Shown one piece after another: positions 1 through 7,589 of a stretch of DNA of 7,589 nt. Below the pieces are notes generated by a model. That model did no database searches and was not told the origin of the DNA. It saw nothing but the letters and a program-made list of their open reading frames with translations. Positions within the stretch are counted from its first letter, which is position 1, and each line of letters begins with the position of its first letter. Source of the stretch: a virus (taxonomy: Duplodnaviria > Heunggongvirae > Uroviricota > Caudoviricetes); the IMG/VR virus record IMGVR_UViG_2681813321_000012, positions 1 through 7,589 of that record; one strand, 5' to 3'. A program made the translations under genes and the position numbers.

Positions 1-532
1 GTCGGTCCTGCACGAACGTCAGCGTCTGCCCGTTCCATACCGGCATACAGCGCATCGCCGAGCAGAAATCACTGAGCACATCCCACGCCTTGCGCTGTGT
101 GGTCAGGTACGCATTACAGGTAATGCGCGGCTCCGTGCCGCCAAAGCCATCCGGCACTGACTGGTCGCAGTACTGGCCGATGACATACAGCGCCCATTTG
201 TCCACATCCGCCGCACCAAGACGTTTCCCCATGCCGTAGCGTGGATGGGTCAGCATATCCCACAGACACCAGGCCATGTTGTTGCTGTATGCCGGTTTAA
301 ACGTTCCGTCCCAGATACCGCTGTATTGCCGCGTCTGCGGGTTATAATTCGACGGCACCTGCAGAATACGCCCGCGCAGATGATAATTACGGCTCACCTG
401 CTGGCTGCCGAACTGCTCCGAGTCCACCTGCACGCCGACCAGTGCCGTGTTCGGGTAGCCCTGTTTCACATCGATGATTTCGGTGTATGACGACCAGAGC
501 GTTTTGTTCTGCAGCTGGTCTGTGGTGCTGTC
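1..532 (-). CDS. J: Tail tip host-specificity protein J, internal fragment (partial at both ends); diverged second copy of 703-1234
   Basis: Seen in sequence: 1-532 aligns base for base with 703-1234 (offset 702, a multiple of 3), with scattered mismatches (e.g. 65 g vs 767 a). The minus-strand J frame stays open to the window edge, which is why no stop-bounded ORF is reported. Interpreted as the end of a separate contig or paralogous copy. Confidence 0.6.
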
Positions 533-542
533 NNNNNNNNNN
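533..542. other. Run of 10 N (assembly or scaffold gap placeholder)
   Basis: Ten consecutive n characters; the flanking sequence is duplicated elsewhere in the window. Confidence 0.95.
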
Positions 543-1792
543 ACAAGCTCTGTCGCCGTCTCCCAGCCGTTATTCGGGTCAATCCAGTTCACCTCAACGG
601 CATTATGGCGGTCCTTCAGGGCGCTGAAGCTGTAGCGGAACGGCGCGCCATCATCCGGCATCACCACATTACTGCGGTTATAGGTCCACACCTTATCTGA
701 TGGTCGGTCCTGCACGAACGTCAGCGTCTGCCCGTTCCATACCGGCATACAGCGCATCGCCGAGCAAAAATCACTGAGCACATCCCACGCCTTGCGCTGT
801 GTGGTCAGGTACGCATTACAGGTAATGCGCGGCTCCGTGCCGCCAAAGCCATCCGGCACTGACTGGTCGCAATTCTGGCCGATGACATACAGCGCCCATT
901 TATCCACATCCGCTGCACCAAGACGTTTCCCCATGCCGTAGCGCGGATGGGTCAGCATATCCCACAGACACCAGGCCATGTTGTTGCTGTATGCCGGTTT
1001 AAACGTTCCGTCCCAGATACCGCTGTATTGCCGCGTCTGCGGGTTATAATTCGACGGCACCTGCAGAATACGCCCGCGCAGATGATAATTACGGCTCACC
1101 TGCTGGCTGCCGAACTGCTCCGAGTCCACCTGCACGCCGACCAGTGCCGTGTTCGGGTAGCCCTGTTTCACATCGATGATTTCGGTGTATGACGACCAGA
1201 GCGTTTTGTTCTGCAGCTGGTCTGTGGTGCTGTCCGGCGTCATTCTGCGCATCCGGATATTAAACGGGCGCGGCGGCAGGTTATCCACCACCACCGAGGC
1301 CAGATACTGCGAGGTGGTTTTGCCCTTAATGGTGATGTCTTTTTCCGTCACCCAGCCACCGTTACGCTGTATCTGAACCAGCAGGCGGACTTCCGACGGA
1401 TTCCGGTCCCCCTTTGAGGTGGTTTCCACCAGTGCCTGCACACCGAAGGTAAAGCGCAGACGGTCGATGTTTGCCGACGTGATGGTCCGGGTGATCGGCG
1501 TGTCATATTTCACTTCCGTACCCAGCACCGTCTCGGAGCCGGAGGATTCAAATCCCTCCGGCGGTGTCTGCTCCTGCTCACCTGCCCGGAACACCACCGT
1601 GACACCGGATATATTGGTATTCCCCTCACTGTCCAGCACCGGCGTACTGTTCAGCAGCACGCTTTTTAATCCGTCCACCGGACCTTCAACCGGCCCTTCG
1701 CTGATGGCATCGATCACACTCAGCAGCTGCGTGGACTTCAGGTTGTCCCTCGCTTCGCGCGGGGTATGCCCCTTACTGCTTCCTTTACCCAT
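543..1792 (-). CDS. J: Tail tip host-specificity protein / central tail fibre J, N-terminal ~416 codons (3' end interrupted by the N run)
   Basis: Manual translation of the minus strand from the ATG at 1792-1790 gives MGKGSSKGHTPREARDNLKST, matching the lambda gpJ N-terminus as I recall it (MGKGSSKGHTPREAKDNLKS). A purine-rich GGAG/GAGGA motif lies just upstream (1793-1804). The ORF track shows no minus-strand ORF here, consistent with an open frame lacking a stop in the window. Gene order after I matches lambda. Confidence 0.9.
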
Positions 1793-1804
1793 TCCTCACA
1801 CTCC

Positions 1805-1833
1805 ATAAACAACAAAGCCGCCCAAAAGGCGGC
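1805..1833 (-). terminator. Rho-independent terminator downstream of the lipoprotein gene
   Basis: Minus-strand reading: GCCGCC-TTTTG-GGCGGC hairpin (plus 1817-1833, 6-bp all-GC stem, 5-nt loop) followed directly by the U-rich tract TTTGTTGTTTAT (plus 1816-1805). It sits about 25 nt after the lipoprotein stop codon. Confidence 0.55.
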
Positions 1834-1858
1834 TCATGAGTTACGACAGGATTAACTA

Positions 1859-2197
1859 TTATTTACATGCATTAACACTATCAGCAAAAATTTTTGGCGT
1901 TAATGCTGGTACACGTTCATAAAGAGTAAAACTACTGCCATTTCCTGCTTTTTTGATATCAAGCACAACATCATATCCCCCCATAGCCTGTGGAACTAAA
2001 AGGCTTACCCCATTCTCAATAGGAAGGGATGTTATAGGTGTTCCATTACCAGCCCATTGTCTGGATATGCAGCCTGACAATTCATCAATATTTTTTAATG
2101 AATTACCTTCCATTACAGGTTTTCCGGATTTTACGTAATCCAAAGATTTACATCCTGTTAAGGCAATAATCGTGCAGAATAAAATCGTTTTGTTCAT
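1859..2197 (-). CDS. Predicted outer-membrane lipoprotein of unknown function (moron between I and J), 112 aa
   Basis: The ORF track gives 1859-2209 with a TTG first codon; I prefer the in-frame ATG at 2197-2195, which yields MNKTILFCTIIALTGC... This has a typical lipoprotein signal peptide: basic N-terminus, hydrophobic core and lipobox L-T-G-C. The residue after the lipidated Cys is Lys, not Asp, so Lol sorting to the outer membrane is expected. Hand-counted GC is about 33-37% against roughly 60% or more in the neighbouring tail genes. I do not recognise the protein family. Confidence 0.75.
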   Translation of the reverse strand: MNKTILFCTIIALTGCKSLDYVKSGKPVMEGNSLKNIDELSGCISRQWAGNGTPITSLPIENGVSLLVPQAMGGYDVVLDIKKAGNGSSFTLYERVPALTPKIFADSVNACK

Positions 2198-2270
2198 ATA
2201 GCTAACCAATAGAATAATTATCAGTGTTCGATATAAATATTAAATCAGTTAGAACATGAGTAAAATAATA
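2198..2270 (-). promoter_or_regulatory. AT-rich intergenic region upstream of the lipoprotein gene; possible moron promoter
   Basis: 73-nt AT-rich spacer between the I stop (2271) and the lipoprotein ATG (2197). On the minus strand it contains a GATAAT (-10-like) hexamer at plus 2217-2222, preceded by TG two bases upstream. I found no convincing -35 or Shine-Dalgarno motif. Speculative. Confidence 0.2.
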
Positions 2271-2912
2271 TTACCGCCCAATTACCACAACCTGACCACC
2301 ATCCCCTTCATCTGCCGTGCTGATCTCCTGAGATGCCACACGTGACCCCACGCGCATTTCACCGTACAGAACAGGCAGGACATTGCCCTGGGCAACCATG
2401 TTATCCAGTGAGGAGAAATAGGTGTTCTGTTTGCCGTTATCCGTTGTCTGTGTACGGGGAGTTCTGGCTTTCGGTGCCAGCATCTGCGCCACACCACCAA
2501 GCGTCATCGCCGCACCCATTGAAAAGAGAATGTCACTGAAAGCGATACTGATCCCCGGCATCCAGATTGCCGTAGCAATCAACGCCGCACCCAGCACCGC
2601 CTGAAACACACCGCCACTTTTTGCTCCCGCAAGACGCGGCACGATGTGGATCACGGCACCATTTGCCAGCGGCTCATTAAGACGGGATGATAATTCGGTT
2701 TCTCCTGCATCCCGCCCGGCAATCCGTACCTGATACCAGCCATCGCTCAGTTTCTGACGAAACGCCGGGAGCTGTGTGGCCAGTGCCCGGATGGCTTCAG
2801 CCCCCGTTTTCACACGAAGGTCGATGCGGCGGCCAAATCGTTGCAAATCCCCGTAAAGGCAGATGCGTGCCATGCCCGGTGACGCCAGAGGGAGTGTGTG
2901 CGTCGCTGCCAT
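2271..2912 (-). CDS. I: Tail tip assembly protein I, 213 aa
   Basis: The translation MAATHTLPLASPGMARICLYGDLQRFGRRIDLRVKTGAEAIRALATQLP... matches lambda gpI as I recall it. It has a central hydrophobic Gly/Ala-rich segment and a C-terminus ending ...DEGDGGQVVVIGR. ATG at 2912 with GAGAGG about 12 nt upstream. The 5' end overlaps the 3' end of K by 103 nt in a different frame, the same overlap I recall from the lambda map. Confidence 0.9.
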   Translation of the reverse strand: MAATHTLPLASPGMARICLYGDLQRFGRRIDLRVKTGAEAIRALATQLPAFRQKLSDGWYQVRIAGRDAGETELSSRLNEPLANGAVIHIVPRLAGAKSGGVFQAVLGAALIATAIWMPGISIAFSDILFSMGAAMTLGGVAQMLAPKARTPRTQTTDNGKQNTYFSSLDNMVAQGNVLPVLYGEMRVGSRVASQEISTADEGDGGQVVVIGR

Positions 2913-3553
2913 TTGTCGGTATACCTCTCTCGTTTGCTCAGTTGTTCAGGAATATGGTGCAGCAGCTCGCCATCACCACAGTAAATAGCGGCATGATTCG
3001 GCACCGATGAACCAAAGCAGCACAGCAGCACATCGCCCGGCTGCGCCGCTGACAACGGCACCTGATACAGCCCCGTTGCCTCCAGATTATCCAGATAGAG
3101 ATTCTGACCGTGACGCCACCAGTCATCCTCACGATGAAAGTCCGGCATCTCAATCCCCGCCAGATGGTAAGCATCCCGGAACAGTGTGTAACAGTCCGTC
3201 ACCCCGTACTCAAAGCGCCGCCCGGTGAGATGCGGCACACAGCGGAACTTGTGAATCGCCCCCCGGCAGACCAGCCACCACGGCAAATCGCTCTGCACCT
3301 GTAGCCGCCGGTCAGCCTCACTCAGCCAGGGCAGACCACCGGGGTGGCTGTGGACCAGCGCCACAATCTCACCCTGCATCTCTGCCTGCAGCCAGTCCTC
3401 CGGAGCCATCCGGAAATAATCCTCCGGCTCACCGGAAATATTCACGCCGGGAAAATATCTTTCCCCCTCCGGCGTTCTCACCACGAAGCCGCACGACTCC
3501 GCTGGCGCACATCGCCGGGCGTGCGCCAGAATCGCTGATTCTGTCTCTGTCAT
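2810..3553 (-). CDS. K: Tail tip assembly protein K (MPN/JAMM-like plus NlpC/P60-like domains), 247 aa as called from the first ATG
   Basis: Translation contains H-S-H-x7-S-x2-D (HSHPGGLPWLSEAD), a JAMM/MPN metalloprotease signature, and a downstream Cys/His region (TDCYTLF ... NHAAIY) typical of NlpC/P60. The ATG at 3553 is 5 nt after the L stop. An alternative internal ATG at 3409, preceded by GGAGGA, would give the 199-aa form annotated for lambda K. Confidence 0.85.
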   Translation of the reverse strand: MTETESAILAHARRCAPAESCGFVVRTPEGERYFPGVNISGEPEDYFRMAPEDWLQAEMQGEIVALVHSHPGGLPWLSEADRRLQVQSDLPWWLVCRGAIHKFRCVPHLTGRRFEYGVTDCYTLFRDAYHLAGIEMPDFHREDDWWRHGQNLYLDNLEATGLYQVPLSAAQPGDVLLCCFGSSVPNHAAIYCGDGELLHHIPEQLSKRERYTDKWQRRTHSLWRHRAWHASAFTGICNDLAAASTFV

Positions 3554-3558
3554 GGGAT

Positions 3559-4257
3559 TTACTGCGAAAGTTTGTTAATGGAAAGGAAGCCGCCAAAGTT
3601 GCCGACGTTATTGCGAAACTTACAACCGCTCAGGCATTTGCTGCATTTATCCTTCGTGATATCGGACGTTGGCTGGTCATATTCATCCGCGACCGCCGGA
3701 CCGTGATAACCGCACTCATCGCCGCGATAGGTCCAGGTGCAGGTGTTGGCCAGCATGATACGTCCCGGAAAAACAGCGCCGTCCGTTTCCGTCGGCGTGG
3801 ACAGTACAAAGGAGGCACTGACCGCGCTCAGTTCGCTGCACTGCTCGATGCGCCAGCGGCTGATCACCTCCTGCTCCGGATCGGCGTCGCTGTTTCCGTT
3901 GACGAAATTCACCGCATCCAGAAAACGGGCGTAAACCTTACGCCTGACCACCGTTCCGCCGACCAGACTCTGCATATCTTCCGCCATGCCGGTGACCATA
4001 CCGTACAGGTTAGAAACCGTCAGCGTGGGGCGCGTACTGGTGCCTTTGCCATTCAGTTCAAAACCACTCCCCTGAATGGGATACGGCTGATACTGTCGCC
4101 CCTGCCAGGTGACCGGCTCACCTTTTTCGTTCTGCTCATTACAGAAAAAATAACGTTCTCCACCGACCTCTGTCAGGTCGATTTCCCAGAGCACCACGCT
4201 GGCAGACTGCTCCGCACGGGTGCATTCATTCAGTGTTTCCTGTCGGATATCCTGCAT
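3559..4257 (-). CDS. L: Tail tip complex protein L, 232 aa
   Basis: The translation MQDIRQETLNECTRAEQSASVVLWEIDLTEVGGERYFFCNEQ... has the same length as lambda gpL. The C-terminus carries clustered cysteines (CTWTYRGDEC ... CSKCLSGC). The start ATG overlaps the M stop (TGATG at 4259-4255). Confidence 0.95.
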   Translation of the reverse strand: MQDIRQETLNECTRAEQSASVVLWEIDLTEVGGERYFFCNEQNEKGEPVTWQGRQYQPYPIQGSGFELNGKGTSTRPTLTVSNLYGMVTGMAEDMQSLVGGTVVRRKVYARFLDAVNFVNGNSDADPEQEVISRWRIEQCSELSAVSASFVLSTPTETDGAVFPGRIMLANTCTWTYRGDECGYHGPAVADEYDQPTSDITKDKCSKCLSGCKFRNNVGNFGGFLSINKLSQ

Positions 4258-4586
4258 CAGTTCACCACCTGTTCAAACTCTGCGCTGAACTCAACACGCA
4301 GCATACTGACCCGCGACGACCATTTTGCGCAGGTCACCTTTATCTGCCGGTAGCCATAAGGCGGCGTCCACAGAAAGGCCTTCCAGCCCCCGTGCTCAGC
4401 CAGAAACGACTCCAGCGCCGCGGCCTCCCAACGGGGAACAGAAAGCGTCACGCTGTACGTTTTCAGGTCAGTGTTCAGCCCGGCAGGCGCTCGCTGGGAA
4501 TAGCCATCACCAAAGCGCACCTTTCTTACGGAAGGGGCAGAAGCCACATCCATACCGGGTTTCACTTTCCAGCGGAAGGTTTTCAT
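4257..4586 (-). CDS. M: Tail tip complex protein M, 109 aa
   Basis: The translation MKTFRWKVKPGMDV...EFSAEFEQVVN has the same length as lambda gpM. The start overlaps the stop of the upstream H fragment (ATGA at 4586-4583). Confidence 0.95.
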   Translation of the reverse strand: MKTFRWKVKPGMDVASAPSVRKVRFGDGYSQRAPAGLNTDLKTYSVTLSVPRWEAAALESFLAEHGGWKAFLWTPPYGYRQIKVTCAKWSSRVSMLRVEFSAEFEQVVN

Positions 4587-5182
4587 CGTCCACCTCCGGA
4601 GAACAGACCACCATCGCGCATCTGCCCGGTCACAACATCCATTGCCGCCTTACGGGCTACGTCATAAACAGCCTTCAGTGCCTGTGGCCCTATCTGACCG
4701 TTCGTGCCGTCGTTGTTAATCACCACATGGTTATTCTGCTCAAACGTCCCGGACGCCTGCGACCGGCTGTCCGCCATGCTGCCCGGTGTACCGACATAAC
4801 CGCCGGTGGCATAGCCGCGCATCAGCCGGTAGAGATTCCCCACGCCAATCCGTCTGGTTGCCTCCTTCGTGAAGACGAATTCACCGCGGTGAACAATTCC
4901 CGCTGGCTCATATTTGCCGCCGGTTCCCGTAAATCCTCCGGTTGCAAAATGGAATTTCGCCGCAGCTGCCTGAATGGCTGTACCGCCTGATGCGGATGCG
5001 CCGCCACCAACAGCCCCGCCAATGGCGCTACCGATACTCCCGACAATCCCCACCATTGCCTGCTTAAGCAGAATTTCTGTCATCATGGACAGCACGGAAC
5101 GGGTGAAGCTGCGCCAGTTCTGCTCACTGCCGGTCAGCATCGCTGCCATATTCTGTGCAATACCGTCAAAGGTCTGCGTGGC
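4583..5182 (-). CDS. H: Tape measure protein H, C-terminal 200 codons (5' end interrupted by the N run)
   Basis: Translation ATQTFDGIAQNMAAMLTGSEQNWRSF ... MRDGGLFSGGGR is a diverged copy of the C-terminus of the H ORF at 5952-7589. It includes a Gly/Ala-rich hydrophobic segment. The track fuses it to the L fragment on the other side of the gap as a 347-aa ORF with XXXX, which I treat as an artefact. Confidence 0.85.
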   Translation of the reverse strand, partial: ATQTFDGIAQNMAAMLTGSEQNWRSFTRSVLSMMTEILLKQAMVGIVGSIGSAIGGAVGGGASASGGTAIQAAAAKFHFATGGFTGTGGKYEPAGIVHRGEFVFTKEATRRIGVGNLYRLMRGYATGGYVGTPGSMADSRSQASGTFEQNNHVVINNDGTNGQIGPQALKAVYDVARKAAMDVVTGQMRDGGLFSGGGR

Positions 5183-5192: not shown

Positions 5193-5626
5193 GCGCTCAG
5201 TTCGCTGCACTGCTCGATGCGCCAGCGGCTGATCACCTCCTGCTCCGGATCGGCGTAACTGTTTCCGTTGACGAAGTTCACCGCATCCAGAAAACGGGCG
5301 TAAACCTTACGCCGGACCACCGTTCCGCCGACCAGACTCTGCATATCTTCCGCCATCCCGGTGACCATACCGTACAGGTTAGAAACCGTCAGCGTGGGGC
5401 GCGTACTGGTGCCTTTGCCATTCAGTTCAAAACCGCTCCCCTGAATGGGATACGGCTGATACTGTCGCCCCTGCCAGGTGACCGGCTCACCTTTTTCGTT
5501 CTGCTCATTACAGAAAAAATAACGTTCTCCACCGACCTCTGTCAGGTCGATTTCCCAGAGCACCACGCTGGCCGACTGCTCCGCACGGGTGCATTCATTC
5601 AGTGTTTCCTGCCGGATATCCTGCAT
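5193..5626 (-). CDS. L: Tail tip complex protein L, N-terminal 144 codons (3' end interrupted by the N run); second copy
   Basis: Translation MQDIRQETLNECTRAEQ ... RIEQCSELS is identical to the N-terminal part of L at 3559-4257 except for one residue (Y vs D in VNGNS[Y/D]ADPEQ). Confidence 0.85.
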
Positions 5627-5955
5627 CAGTTCACCACCTGTTCAAACTCTGCGCTGAACTCAACACGTAACATACTGACCCGCGATGTCCATTTTGCGCA
5701 GGTCACCCTGATCTGCCGCCAGCCATAAGGCGGCGTCCACAGAAAGGCTTTCCAGCCCCCGTGCTCAGCCAGAAACGACTCCAGCGCCCTGGCCTCCTCG
5801 CGGGAGACAGAAAGCGTCACGCTGTACGTTTTCAGGTCAGCATTCAGCCCGGCAGGCGCACGCTGGGAATAGCCATCACCAAAGCGCACCTCCCTGACGG
5901 AAGGAGCCGATGTCACATCCATCCCGGGTTTCACTTTCCAGCGGAAGGTTTTCAT
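5626..5955 (-). CDS. M: Tail tip complex protein M, 109 aa (second, diverged copy)
   Basis: Same length and start/stop overlaps as the M gene at 4257-4586. The two proteins differ at 9 of 109 positions by my hand alignment. Confidence 0.95.
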   Translation of the reverse strand: MKTFRWKVKPGMDVTSAPSVREVRFGDGYSQRAPAGLNADLKTYSVTLSVSREEARALESFLAEHGGWKAFLWTPPYGWRQIRVTCAKWTSRVSMLRVEFSAEFEQVVN

Positions 5956-7589
5956 CGTCCACCTCCGGAGAACAAGCCACCATCACGCATCTGTGCCTGA
6001 ATTTCATCACGGGCACCCTTGCGGGCCATGTCATACACAGCCTTCAGCGCCTGTGGTCCAATCTGCCCGTTCGTGCCGTCGTTGTTAATCACCACATGGT
6101 TATTCTGCTCAAACTTCCCGGACGCCTGCGACCGGCTGTCCGCCAGACTGCCCGGTGTACCGACATAACCGCCGGTGGCATAGCCGCGCATAAGCCGGTA
6201 AAGATTCCCCACGCCAATCCGGCTGGTTGCCTCCTTCGTGAAGACAAACTCACCACGGTGAACAATCCCCGCTGGCTCATATTTGCCGCCGGTTCCCGTA
6301 AATCCTCCGGTCGCAAAATGGAATTTCGCCGCAGCTGCCTGAATGGCTGTACCGCCTGATGCGGATGCGCCGCCACCAACAGCCCCGCCAATGGCGCTAC
6401 CGATACTCCCGACAATCCCCACCATTGCCTGCTTAAGCAGAATTTCTGTCATCATGGACAGCACGGAACGGGTGAAGCTGCGCCAGTTCTGCTCACTGCC
6501 GGTCAGCATCGCTGCCATATTCTGTGCAATACCGTCAAAGGTCTGCGTGGCCACGCTTTTTACCTGCGAAAAACTGTCCGTCGCACTTTCCGCCCACTCA
6601 CCCCAGCCGGACTTCATCCCGGCCATCCAGCTTCCACGAAGCTGCTCCTCCGCAGACCAGGTGTTCTTCAGTGCAGATGTGGCCTTCGCCAGCGCATCCG
6701 GATTATCACCGTACACCTCACGAAGGCGCTGCTCTTCCGACTCCCGCTGCGCCTGACGGTCGGTGAGTCCGCGGGCTTTTGCGCTGATTGCCGCCTGCTT
6801 CGCACTCTGCTGCTGTTCAAACCGCGCCGCCTGCTGTGCCAGCTCATTCAGCCGTTTCTGGTGTTCAACCTTGTCGCCCAGCTCAGCCAGCTGGCGTTTG
6901 TACTCCAGCGTCTCTTTCTCATGAGCCAGCAGGGATTTTTCCTGCTCAGATAACTGCCGTTTCGTGGCGGCCTCTTTCAGGACCACATACTGATTTTCCG
7001 CTTTCCATAAATCCCGGCGCTGCTGGCTGATTTTTTCATTCGCACCGCTGTGCTTCTCCAGCGTCCTGAGCTCAGTTTCAAGCGACAGCATGGCTGCATG
7101 CGCCCGGTCTTCCTGGCGCTCACCGGCAGACACCTTCACACCTGACGGCTTTTTCTGCGTCGATTCATAATCCTTTTTTGCCGACGCCATCAGCGTGTTG
7201 TAATCCGCCTGCAGGATTTTTCCGTCTTTCAGGGCCTTATTCAGCTCTTCCTGCCGGGCGGTATATTTCTCCAGTGGCGTCAGCAGGCGCTCATACGCCT
7301 TCTGCGCCTCTCCGGTATACTTCAGCTGTGACGACTCACGCTCAGCCCTGTCCCTTGCCGCCAGTTCACCGGCTTTTTCCATATCCGACTGCAGCGTGGC
7401 CGCTGCCAGACCCAGACGGGCATTTTCCCGGTCATCCCATGCGCCCTGAAGGTTGGCCCGGAAAGAGGAGGTTTTACCGCGGCGCTGGCTCCGGCTCTGG
7501 TACCACTGCCATTTTTTATCCGCCTCATCAAATGCCTTCTGCGCACTGGCGAGCATATCCGCTGAGGATTCCGGACGACCGATATCCAG
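5952..7589 (-). CDS. H: Tape measure protein H, C-terminal 545 codons (5' end beyond the window)
   Basis: The frame is open from the stop at 5952-5954 to the window edge. The Met at 7556 in the track is only the first in-window Met, not the true start (lambda H is about 853 aa as I recall). Translation is rich in E/K/Q/A/L heptad-like sequence (coiled coil) with a Gly/Ala-rich hydrophobic segment near the C-terminus and the ending ...MRDGGLFSGGGR. The gene order H-M-L matches lambda. Confidence 0.9.
   Translation of the reverse strand: MDIGRPESSADMLASAQKAFDEADKKWQWYQSRSQRRGKTSSFRANLQGAWDDRENARLGLAAATLQSDMEKAGELAARDRAERESSQLKYTGEAQKAYERLLTPLEKYTARQEELNKALKDGKILQADYNTLMASAKKDYESTQKKPSGVKVSAGERQEDRAHAAMLSLETELRTLEKHSGANEKISQQRRDLWKAENQYVVLKEAATKRQLSEQEKSLLAHEKETLEYKRQLAELGDKVEHQKRLNELAQQAARFEQQQSAKQAAISAKARGLTDRQAQRESEEQRLREVYGDNPDALAKATSALKNTWSAEEQLRGSWMAGMKSGWGEWAESATDSFSQVKSVATQTFDGIAQNMAAMLTGSEQNWRSFTRSVLSMMTEILLKQAMVGIVGSIGSAIGGAVGGGASASGGTAIQAAAAKFHFATGGFTGTGGKYEPAGIVHRGEFVFTKEATSRIGVGNLYRLMRGYATGGYVGTPGSLADSRSQASGKFEQNNHVVINNDGTNGQIGPQALKAVYDMARKGARDEIQAQMRDGGLFSGGGR

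Follow-up and report, generated by a model that had tools for sequence, protein, structure and literature searches.

Here we show that many lambda-like tail operons have a resident terminator-like hairpin abutting the J ribosome-binding site, whether or not a further gene has been inserted beside it, as has happened in the stretch of viral DNA analysed here (7,589 nucleotides, hereafter the window). The reading we favour, with a probability of about 0.65, is that the hairpin is a Rho-independent terminator, which would stop non-antiterminated polymerase before the J ribosome-binding site and be read through in late transcription. It would then be this lineage's version of the hairpin retained by lambda-like siphoviruses in the short I-J spacer, immediately 5' of the Shine-Dalgarno sequence of J. 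In this prophage lineage an AT-rich segment of ~430 bp, encoding a phrog_914 lipoprotein, lies between the I stop and the hairpin.

All genes of the window lie on the minus strand, in the order 3' part of the tape-measure gene H, M, a 347-aa hybrid ORF, a second M, L, K, I, the lipoprotein gene and J, and the hairpin is read 5' to 3' on that same strand. The features discussed below are, in window positions:

1..1792, minus strand: J, tail tip / host-specificity gene, 5' part (Pfam FNIII-A_GpJ and Phage-tail_3), running off the window
1793..1804, minus strand: J ribosome-binding region, with GGAG at 1804-1801, TGT, and GAGGA at 1797-1793
1805..1814, minus strand: T-rich tail TGTTGTTTAT, which together with two stem-base T reads UUUGUUGUUUAU on the RNA
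1815..1835, minus strand: predicted terminator hairpin, GAGCCGCC / TTTT(G) / GGCGGCTT, called from a terminator scan, the fold and homology with the lambda I-J region
~1840..2270, minus strand: inserted DNA of ~430 bp, replacing ~15 nt of the 60-nt lambda-type I-J spacer
1859..2197, minus strand: moron cargo, a 112-aa lipoprotein with lipobox L-T-G-C, phrog_914 (ATG at 2197, stop at 1861-1859)
2198..2270, minus strand: AT-rich spacer of 73 nt from the I stop to the lipoprotein ATG, 28-36% GC
2271..2912, minus strand: tail assembly gene I (Pfam Lambda_tail_I), its 3' 300 nt being a distinct allele

Along the minus strand the region runs GAGCCGCC-TTTT(G)-GGCGGCTT-TGTTGTTTAT-GGAG-TGT-GAGGA-ATG. 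The 5' arm (G1835 A G C C G C C1828) pairs with the 3' arm (G1822 G C G G C T T1815) around a TTTT(G) loop at 1827-1823, 3-5 nt in size, so that a G/C-only core of 6 bp (1833-1828 with 1822-1817) is lengthened by A-U and G.U pairs to 8-9 pairs (stem 1835-1828 with 1822-1815). Of the 12 bases that follow the G/C core 9 are T, with two interrupting G (UUUGUUGUUUAU), a U tract weaker than the U6-7 of the HK97-type counterparts described below. The whole element sits in the 66-nt spacer that separates the stop codon of the lipoprotein gene from the start of J (ATG at 1792-1790); it is non-coding, on the coding strand, 24 nt past the stop and 22 nt ahead of the ATG, and its T tract directly abuts the GGAG, whose equivalent in Lambda imm434 is annotated as the J ribosome-binding site. 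The features by which intrinsic terminators are recognised are thereby present, namely a G+C-rich stem, a short loop, a 3' U-rich tract and a place on the transcribed strand after a stop codon. A first-pass annotation of the sequence had already described, at 1805-1833, a GC-only 6-bp hairpin and U-rich tract in the interval from the lipoprotein stop to the start of J, with the tract ending just before GGAG/GAGGA, and had read it as an intrinsic terminator; its interval proved accurate, and the anatomy, the strand and the end point at the J Shine-Dalgarno sequence were all borne out. A bidirectional terminator was considered and rejected, the plus strand having no T tract after the stem, so that the element is one-directional.

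Folding energy, the check proposed in that annotation, came to -15.4 kcal/mol for a 32-mer (z = -3.7, with 0/200 dinucleotide shuffles as good). The hairpin was the first entry in a terminator scan of the window, and in our own scan it was the sole coding-strand hairpin with a T tail at or below -12 kcal/mol, the runner-up reaching -8.0. Dinucleotide shuffles of the whole strand (n=200) yielded on average 0.10 sites at <= -12 kcal/mol and 0.02 at <= -14.9 kcal/mol, and the chance expectation within the 66-nt spacer is ~0.0009. The hairpin is not a chance feature. An Rfam 15 scan of the window returned no RNA family at gathering score; a GcvB match at 1807-2032 (19.6 bits, where the gathering score is 42; E = 0.59) was judged to be chance, and a REP or other repeated element was judged unlikely by eye from the sequence.

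The same hairpin is found in lambda-type loci that lack the lipoprotein gene. Alignment with Lambda_2E9 and mEp460 resolves the lambda-type 60-nt I-J spacer as AAACCGCC-T(C/G)CG-GGCGGTTT-TGTCGTTTAT-GGAG, and lambda, Lambda_2E9 and mEp460 carry a homologous hairpin whose place relative to the J ribosome-binding site is unchanged (in lambda at 15461-15484, within the spacer 15445-15504, at -15.2 kcal/mol). We assembled from IMG/VR a set of 83 loci in which the N-terminus of J shares 99-100% identity with that of the window. In 76 of them the spacer is short and without a lipoprotein gene, and all 76 have the homologous hairpin; the other 7 have the lipoprotein gene together with the window's hairpin allele, bringing retention to 83/83.

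Variation within the element is placed as pairing would demand. Stem pair 3 shows a compensatory change, A-T in lambda and G-C in the window, and across lineages it is A-T, G-C or G.T, while pair 6 is G-C, A-T or G.T; even distant prophages keep the pairing, pair 6 being G.T in a Shigella locus and A-T in Edwardsiella, and pair 3 being G.T in Lonsdalea. Among 14 lambda-type alleles, 0/16 stem positions vary as against 9/32 non-stem positions, that is, loop, tail and leader (one-sided Fisher p = 0.017), and the tail is more variable than the stem. Pairs were tabulated by hand in a script; the MAFFT pre-J alignment had the 5' arm out of register in three sequences. Taken together, the hairpin is conserved with compensatory changes and is present without the moron, and its occurrence in empty loci implies that a terminator would stand there with or without one. 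The first-pass annotation had regarded a terminator at this place as typical of morons and as support for independent expression of the lipoprotein gene. The homologous hairpin in 76/76 empty loci and in lambda itself does not support that inference, nor the view of the terminator as a hallmark of the moron; likewise HK446, with no moron between I and J, has its pre-J hairpin in common with the moron-bearing HK97 and HK022.

The latter group extends the pattern well beyond lambda-type phages. A hairpin and T run ending at the ribosome-binding site of the J homologue were found in HK446, HK97, HK022, Cronobacter phiES15, Serratia Swain and the Stx-type phages 2851 and PhiR12_2*, and a hairpin in the matching place also in Edwardsiella and Lonsdalea prophages, so that the position recurs against unrelated sequence backgrounds; a T tract follows the stem in every lineage examined. 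In a search for related loci with a 4-sequence J alignment, many of the matches were lambda DNA in unrelated assemblies. The 52-nt I-J spacer of HK446 contains GGCCACC-TTCG-GGTGGC-T6, and HK97 and HK022 have that hairpin with the annotated morons gp22 and gp23 upstream. In the HK97 record (NC_002167) the label 'putative terminator' is given to 15107-15129, which immediately precedes gene 24 (homologous to J) and lies downstream of the 'moron product' Gp22 and the 'reverse moron product' Gp23; HK022 is similar. Among HK97-type IMG/VR loci (n=80) the spacer measures 51-56 nt in 72 and 501-1497 nt in 6, and the hairpin is intact in 79/80, the exception having an IS element in the loop. In that locus (IMGVR_UViG_2916446609_000005, ~1020-2480) an IS3-family element of ~1.44 kb lies exactly in the pre-J hairpin loop, with orfA/orfB on the opposite strand and the order AAGCCACC-TTCG, IS, TTCG-GGTGGC-T7, the TTCG being duplicated at both ends. 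No hairpin was found where I and J abut or overlap, in Proteus, Providencia, Morganella and Xenorhabdus, where the two genes are translationally coupled (TAAATG, TAATG), so the element is dispensable for such tail operons.

The I-J gap is, moreover, a recurrent and recognised cargo slot in both lambda-type and HK97-type phages. In three Stx-type loci it measures 200-340 nt and holds no annotated gene:

952-1200 of locus L085: I-J gap of PhiR12_2*
942-1200 of locus L086: I-J gap of 2851
841-1182 of locus L087: I-J gap of PPompW_699

There an opposite-strand terminator-like hairpin adjoins the I stop and a strong forward terminator precedes J, an arrangement that could be a reverse-oriented small unit. 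Rfam scans of the I-J regions of 2851, PhiR12_2*, PPompW_699, HK022 and HK97 matched no RNA family. The EHEC prophage sRNAs AgvB and AsxR were rejected as elements of the gap, both lying near pR', and Pas sRNAs were likewise set aside, no link having emerged; Pas genes are described as next to capsid or tail genes. Further coding-strand hairpin-plus-T sites occur in the late operon of lambda imm434 at 6098-6115, 7162-7179, 18920-18935 and 19612-19633, following D, E, J and lom, respectively, none of them annotated as a terminator in the record.

The cargo of the window was correctly recognised in the first-pass annotation as an inserted moron. It is extra DNA between I and J, genes that are adjacent in relatives, and its base composition is foreign: I and J stand 478 nt apart, where lambda-type loci have 60 nt, and the insert has 28-47% GC against 52-60% in the flanking I and J. 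A 701-nt query across the junction matched at full length in 334 of 5,426 complete E. coli genomes, nearly all at 99-100%, whereas 103 phage records matched at its two ends only, spanning 282-283 nt; by this nucleotide query the lipoprotein insert is absent from all 50,697 phage records. Among the strains with the locus are E. coli ATCC 11775 (= DSM 30083) and O104:H4 FDAARGOS_349, in which the segments searched are 99.9-100% identical to the window. In E. coli FDAARGOS_1059 the I-lipoprotein-J segment (window 1700-2400) is 100% identical, and an IS66-family element splits K (L001 8136-10983), which marks that prophage as defective.

The ORF is evidently a real gene, judging from its relatives. 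It matches phrog_914 (E = 7e-33) and has homologues 49-62% identical in Klebsiella, Enterobacter, Kluyvera and Jejubacter, in which the lipobox cysteine is invariant and two more cysteines are conserved. Pfam and PADLOC gave no match for it, and NCBIfam nothing beyond a weak match to VirB7 lipoprotein, which at E = 0.08 falls far short of the cut-off; an AlphaFold2 model (pLDDT 84) had as its only fold match Francisella Flpp3, weakly (TM ~0.52, E = 5e-3). Members of phrog_914 occupy three tail-operon junctions in Enterobacteriaceae prophages: I-J; K-I, in phage Fraca and Klebsiella prophages; and tail chaperone (Phage_tail_T)-tape measure (T-H), in an Enterobacter prophage. The homologues at K-I and T-H are each followed by a hairpin and T7 and then by the Shine-Dalgarno sequence of the next gene, and in Fraca the phrog_914 gene is preceded by a second small lipoprotein ORF. 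The homologues elsewhere lie at:

2501-2836 of locus L157: phrog_914 homologue
3001-3339 of loci L158-L161: phrog_914 homologues
3001-3342 of locus L162: phrog_914 homologue

It could be argued that the moron owns the terminator, the hairpin having arrived with the lipoprotein transcription unit, as its 3' end, and serving that unit. What lends this some weight is the distribution of alleles: the window's version, GAGCCGCC-TTTTG-GGCGGCTT followed by the tail TGTTG and by GGAGTG, occurs in 7/7 moron-bearing loci and 0/76 empty loci, and differs from the empty-site allele at ~8 positions, so that it could have come with the moron from a diverged lineage. The lipoprotein homologues at other junctions, each with a terminator directly downstream, are in keeping with this, as is the local mosaicism: the 3' end of I in moron-bearing loci is at most 87% identical to that of empty loci, against 98% for the 5' end of J, which is of lambda type, and this places a mosaic joint near the hairpin. 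Nevertheless, we consider ownership by the moron unlikely, given that empty lambda-type spacers have a hairpin at the matching place and with the same 8-pair layout, that occupied and empty sites of the HK97 group share one hairpin, and that the closest moron-less I allele (89% identical) is itself followed by a pre-J hairpin, of lambda type. At most the hairpin would be a hybrid or an orthologue and not a moron-specific addition; the best description appears to be that it is orthologous to the resident hairpin, or possibly recombinant with it, and sits in a left-hand module that has diverged.

An equally doubtful proposal is that the terminator and TTTATGG Shine-Dalgarno cassette found before J or before I forms the conserved right-hand joint of the cargo slot, in which case morons and host-range modules would be swapped by recombination within or beside the hairpin. 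The pre-I and pre-J cassettes of HK97-type phages are closely alike, and such a joint would explain why near-identical cassettes (AAGCCACC-TTCG-GGTGGC-T7-ATGG) occur at different junctions and in different phages. It would also account for the divergence of occupied and empty alleles leftwards from the outer 5' stem bases and for the rise in identity from I to J with the hairpin in between.

Under the preferred reading of the hairpin as a resident terminator, polymerase without the late antiterminator would release at ~1810-1805, and so would any polymerase initiating within or close to the moron in a lysogen. The released transcripts would include the lipoprotein gene and stop short of the J ribosome-binding site, whereas in the lytic phase polymerase modified by Q would come from pR' and continue into J. 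The two G that interrupt the U tract suggest that termination may be partial. We infer termination itself, a moron promoter and Q read-through, the first and the last by analogy with lambda biology. A consensus promoter scan detected no minus-strand site upstream of the lipoprotein gene, and a relaxed scan of the AT-rich 73-nt spacer gave only sigma-70-like matches of 8-9/12 (GATAAT at 2222-2217 with TTTAAT or TTAATA; TTTACT-N16/17-TAATAT); with no convincing promoter upstream, the lysogen transcripts that the element would stop are hypothetical. A promoter-like site on the plus strand at 1862-1891 (TTTACA-18-AAAAAT, 9/12) runs antisense to the lipoprotein gene, heading into its 3' end; the site is weak and in an AT-rich context.

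The window holds neither Q nor pR'. In an E. coli prophage carrying the I-lipoprotein-J locus, a DUF1133 gene, which we take to belong to a Q-type antiterminator family, lies after rusA and before tRNAs, holin and lysozyme, a placement that by analogy fits lambda-style late control. Q-modified polymerase is known to pass terminators in late transcription (PMC7547250). Our literature search found no described terminator between lambda I and J, no paper on termination at the site in the window, and no 3'-end map of the lambda late operon.

Somewhat less probable than ownership by the moron, although not mutually exclusive with the terminator reading, is a post-transcriptional role, either as a 3' stem-loop that would guard the upstream late mRNA against exonucleases after processing or as a structured spacer and U-rich leader allowing J to be translated independently of I. 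Points in favour of such a role are the translational coupling of I and J where the hairpin is absent, and the T tract abutting the next gene's Shine-Dalgarno sequence in every lineage (TTTATGGAG, TTTTTTATGGG); lambda, too, has the hairpin although it has no lysogen-expressed gene upstream of it, and in the lambda late operon similar intergenic hairpins follow D (6098) and E (7162), both of them abundantly expressed head genes. Yet the T tract found in every lineage examined is the terminator consensus, for which a stabiliser hairpin has no need, and I is a low-abundance protein, leaving no obvious rationale for stabilising its message. That the hairpin is a chance or non-functional relic, as its absence from some lineages and the imperfect U tract might suggest, is highly improbable in view of the 0.02 equally stable sites expected per strand, an invariant stem beside variable loop, tail and leader with compensatory changes across lineages, and retention in 83/83 lambda-type and 79/80 HK97-type loci.

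The window also holds two duplications. Inside J there is a tandem duplication (1-532 against 703-1234, spacing 702, 98.9% identity), which is absent from the complete E. coli genomes searched. A direct duplication of 1,360 nt (3824-5182 against 5193-6551, spacing 1369, 94.8% identity) gives rise to the order H, M, the 347-aa hybrid ORF (5626-4583), second M and L. It was found in no complete E. coli genome, the best matches covering ~5.7 kb of the 7.6-kb window in three pieces, and the 5% divergence between the copies points to a join of two related prophages, by mis-assembly or recombination, and not to a fresh duplication. Separately, low-coverage contigs in many GTDB species-representative assemblies of unrelated bacteria encode a J N-terminus with 98% protein identity to that of the window (for example in Neobacillus, Kitasatospora, Bradyrhizobium and Leeuwenhoekiella; L095-L117 and others); these most likely represent contamination with lambda control DNA.

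From a practical standpoint, a terminator beside an inserted gene in a lambdoid late operon is not evidence of an autonomous, lysogen-expressed unit, because the same terminator is present without the insert. A conserved hairpin guards the I-J cargo slot in lambda-type and HK97-type phages, and the phrog_914 lipoprotein family moves between at least three tail-operon junctions in Enterobacteriaceae prophages.

The nearest known counterparts are HK97 and HK022, which, like the window, have a terminator hairpin and T tract ending ~10-20 nt before the start of the J homologue and moron genes between the I homologue and the hairpin, the hairpin being present also in the empty-site HK446. HK97 differs in its stem (GCCACC/GGTGGC), its perfect U6-7 tract and its cargo, gp22 and the reverse-oriented gp23/srb in place of a lipoprotein, and the HK97-type J is only ~33% identical to the window-type J. 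The lambda I-J hairpin is homologous, matches that of the window in its 8-pair layout and in the TTTATGGAG junction to the ribosome-binding site of J, and has a comparable -15.2 kcal/mol, but no gene separates it from I; relative to its stem, that of the window has G-C for A-T at pair 3 and G.U at pair 1, with a loop of 5 and not 4 nt. In the Lambda imm434 record the ribosome-binding site alone is annotated there, and no terminator.

Morons have been described as extra DNA between late genes with their own promoter, their own terminator and a deviating GC content (PMC3594210). The classical examples, lambda lom and bor and HK97 gene 15, resemble the moron of the window in being extra late-gene DNA of deviating GC with a terminator at the 3' end (PMC3594210), a putative one in the window, lom being followed by a strong hairpin and T5 at 19612-19633, and HK97 gene 15 lies at the tail chaperone-tape measure junction (PMC3594210), as does the Enterobacter homologue of the window lipoprotein. 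For the classical morons, expression from the repressed prophage has been demonstrated experimentally, whereas the moron of the window is known from sequence and shares its terminator with empty sites. Lambda tR' shares the proposed logic of an intrinsic terminator passed only by Q-modified polymerase (PMC7547250); it lies directly after pR' as a regulated switch, however, while the pre-J hairpin lies deep inside the operon. To this known architecture the window adds a new cargo, the phrog_914 lipoprotein, and a new hairpin allele.
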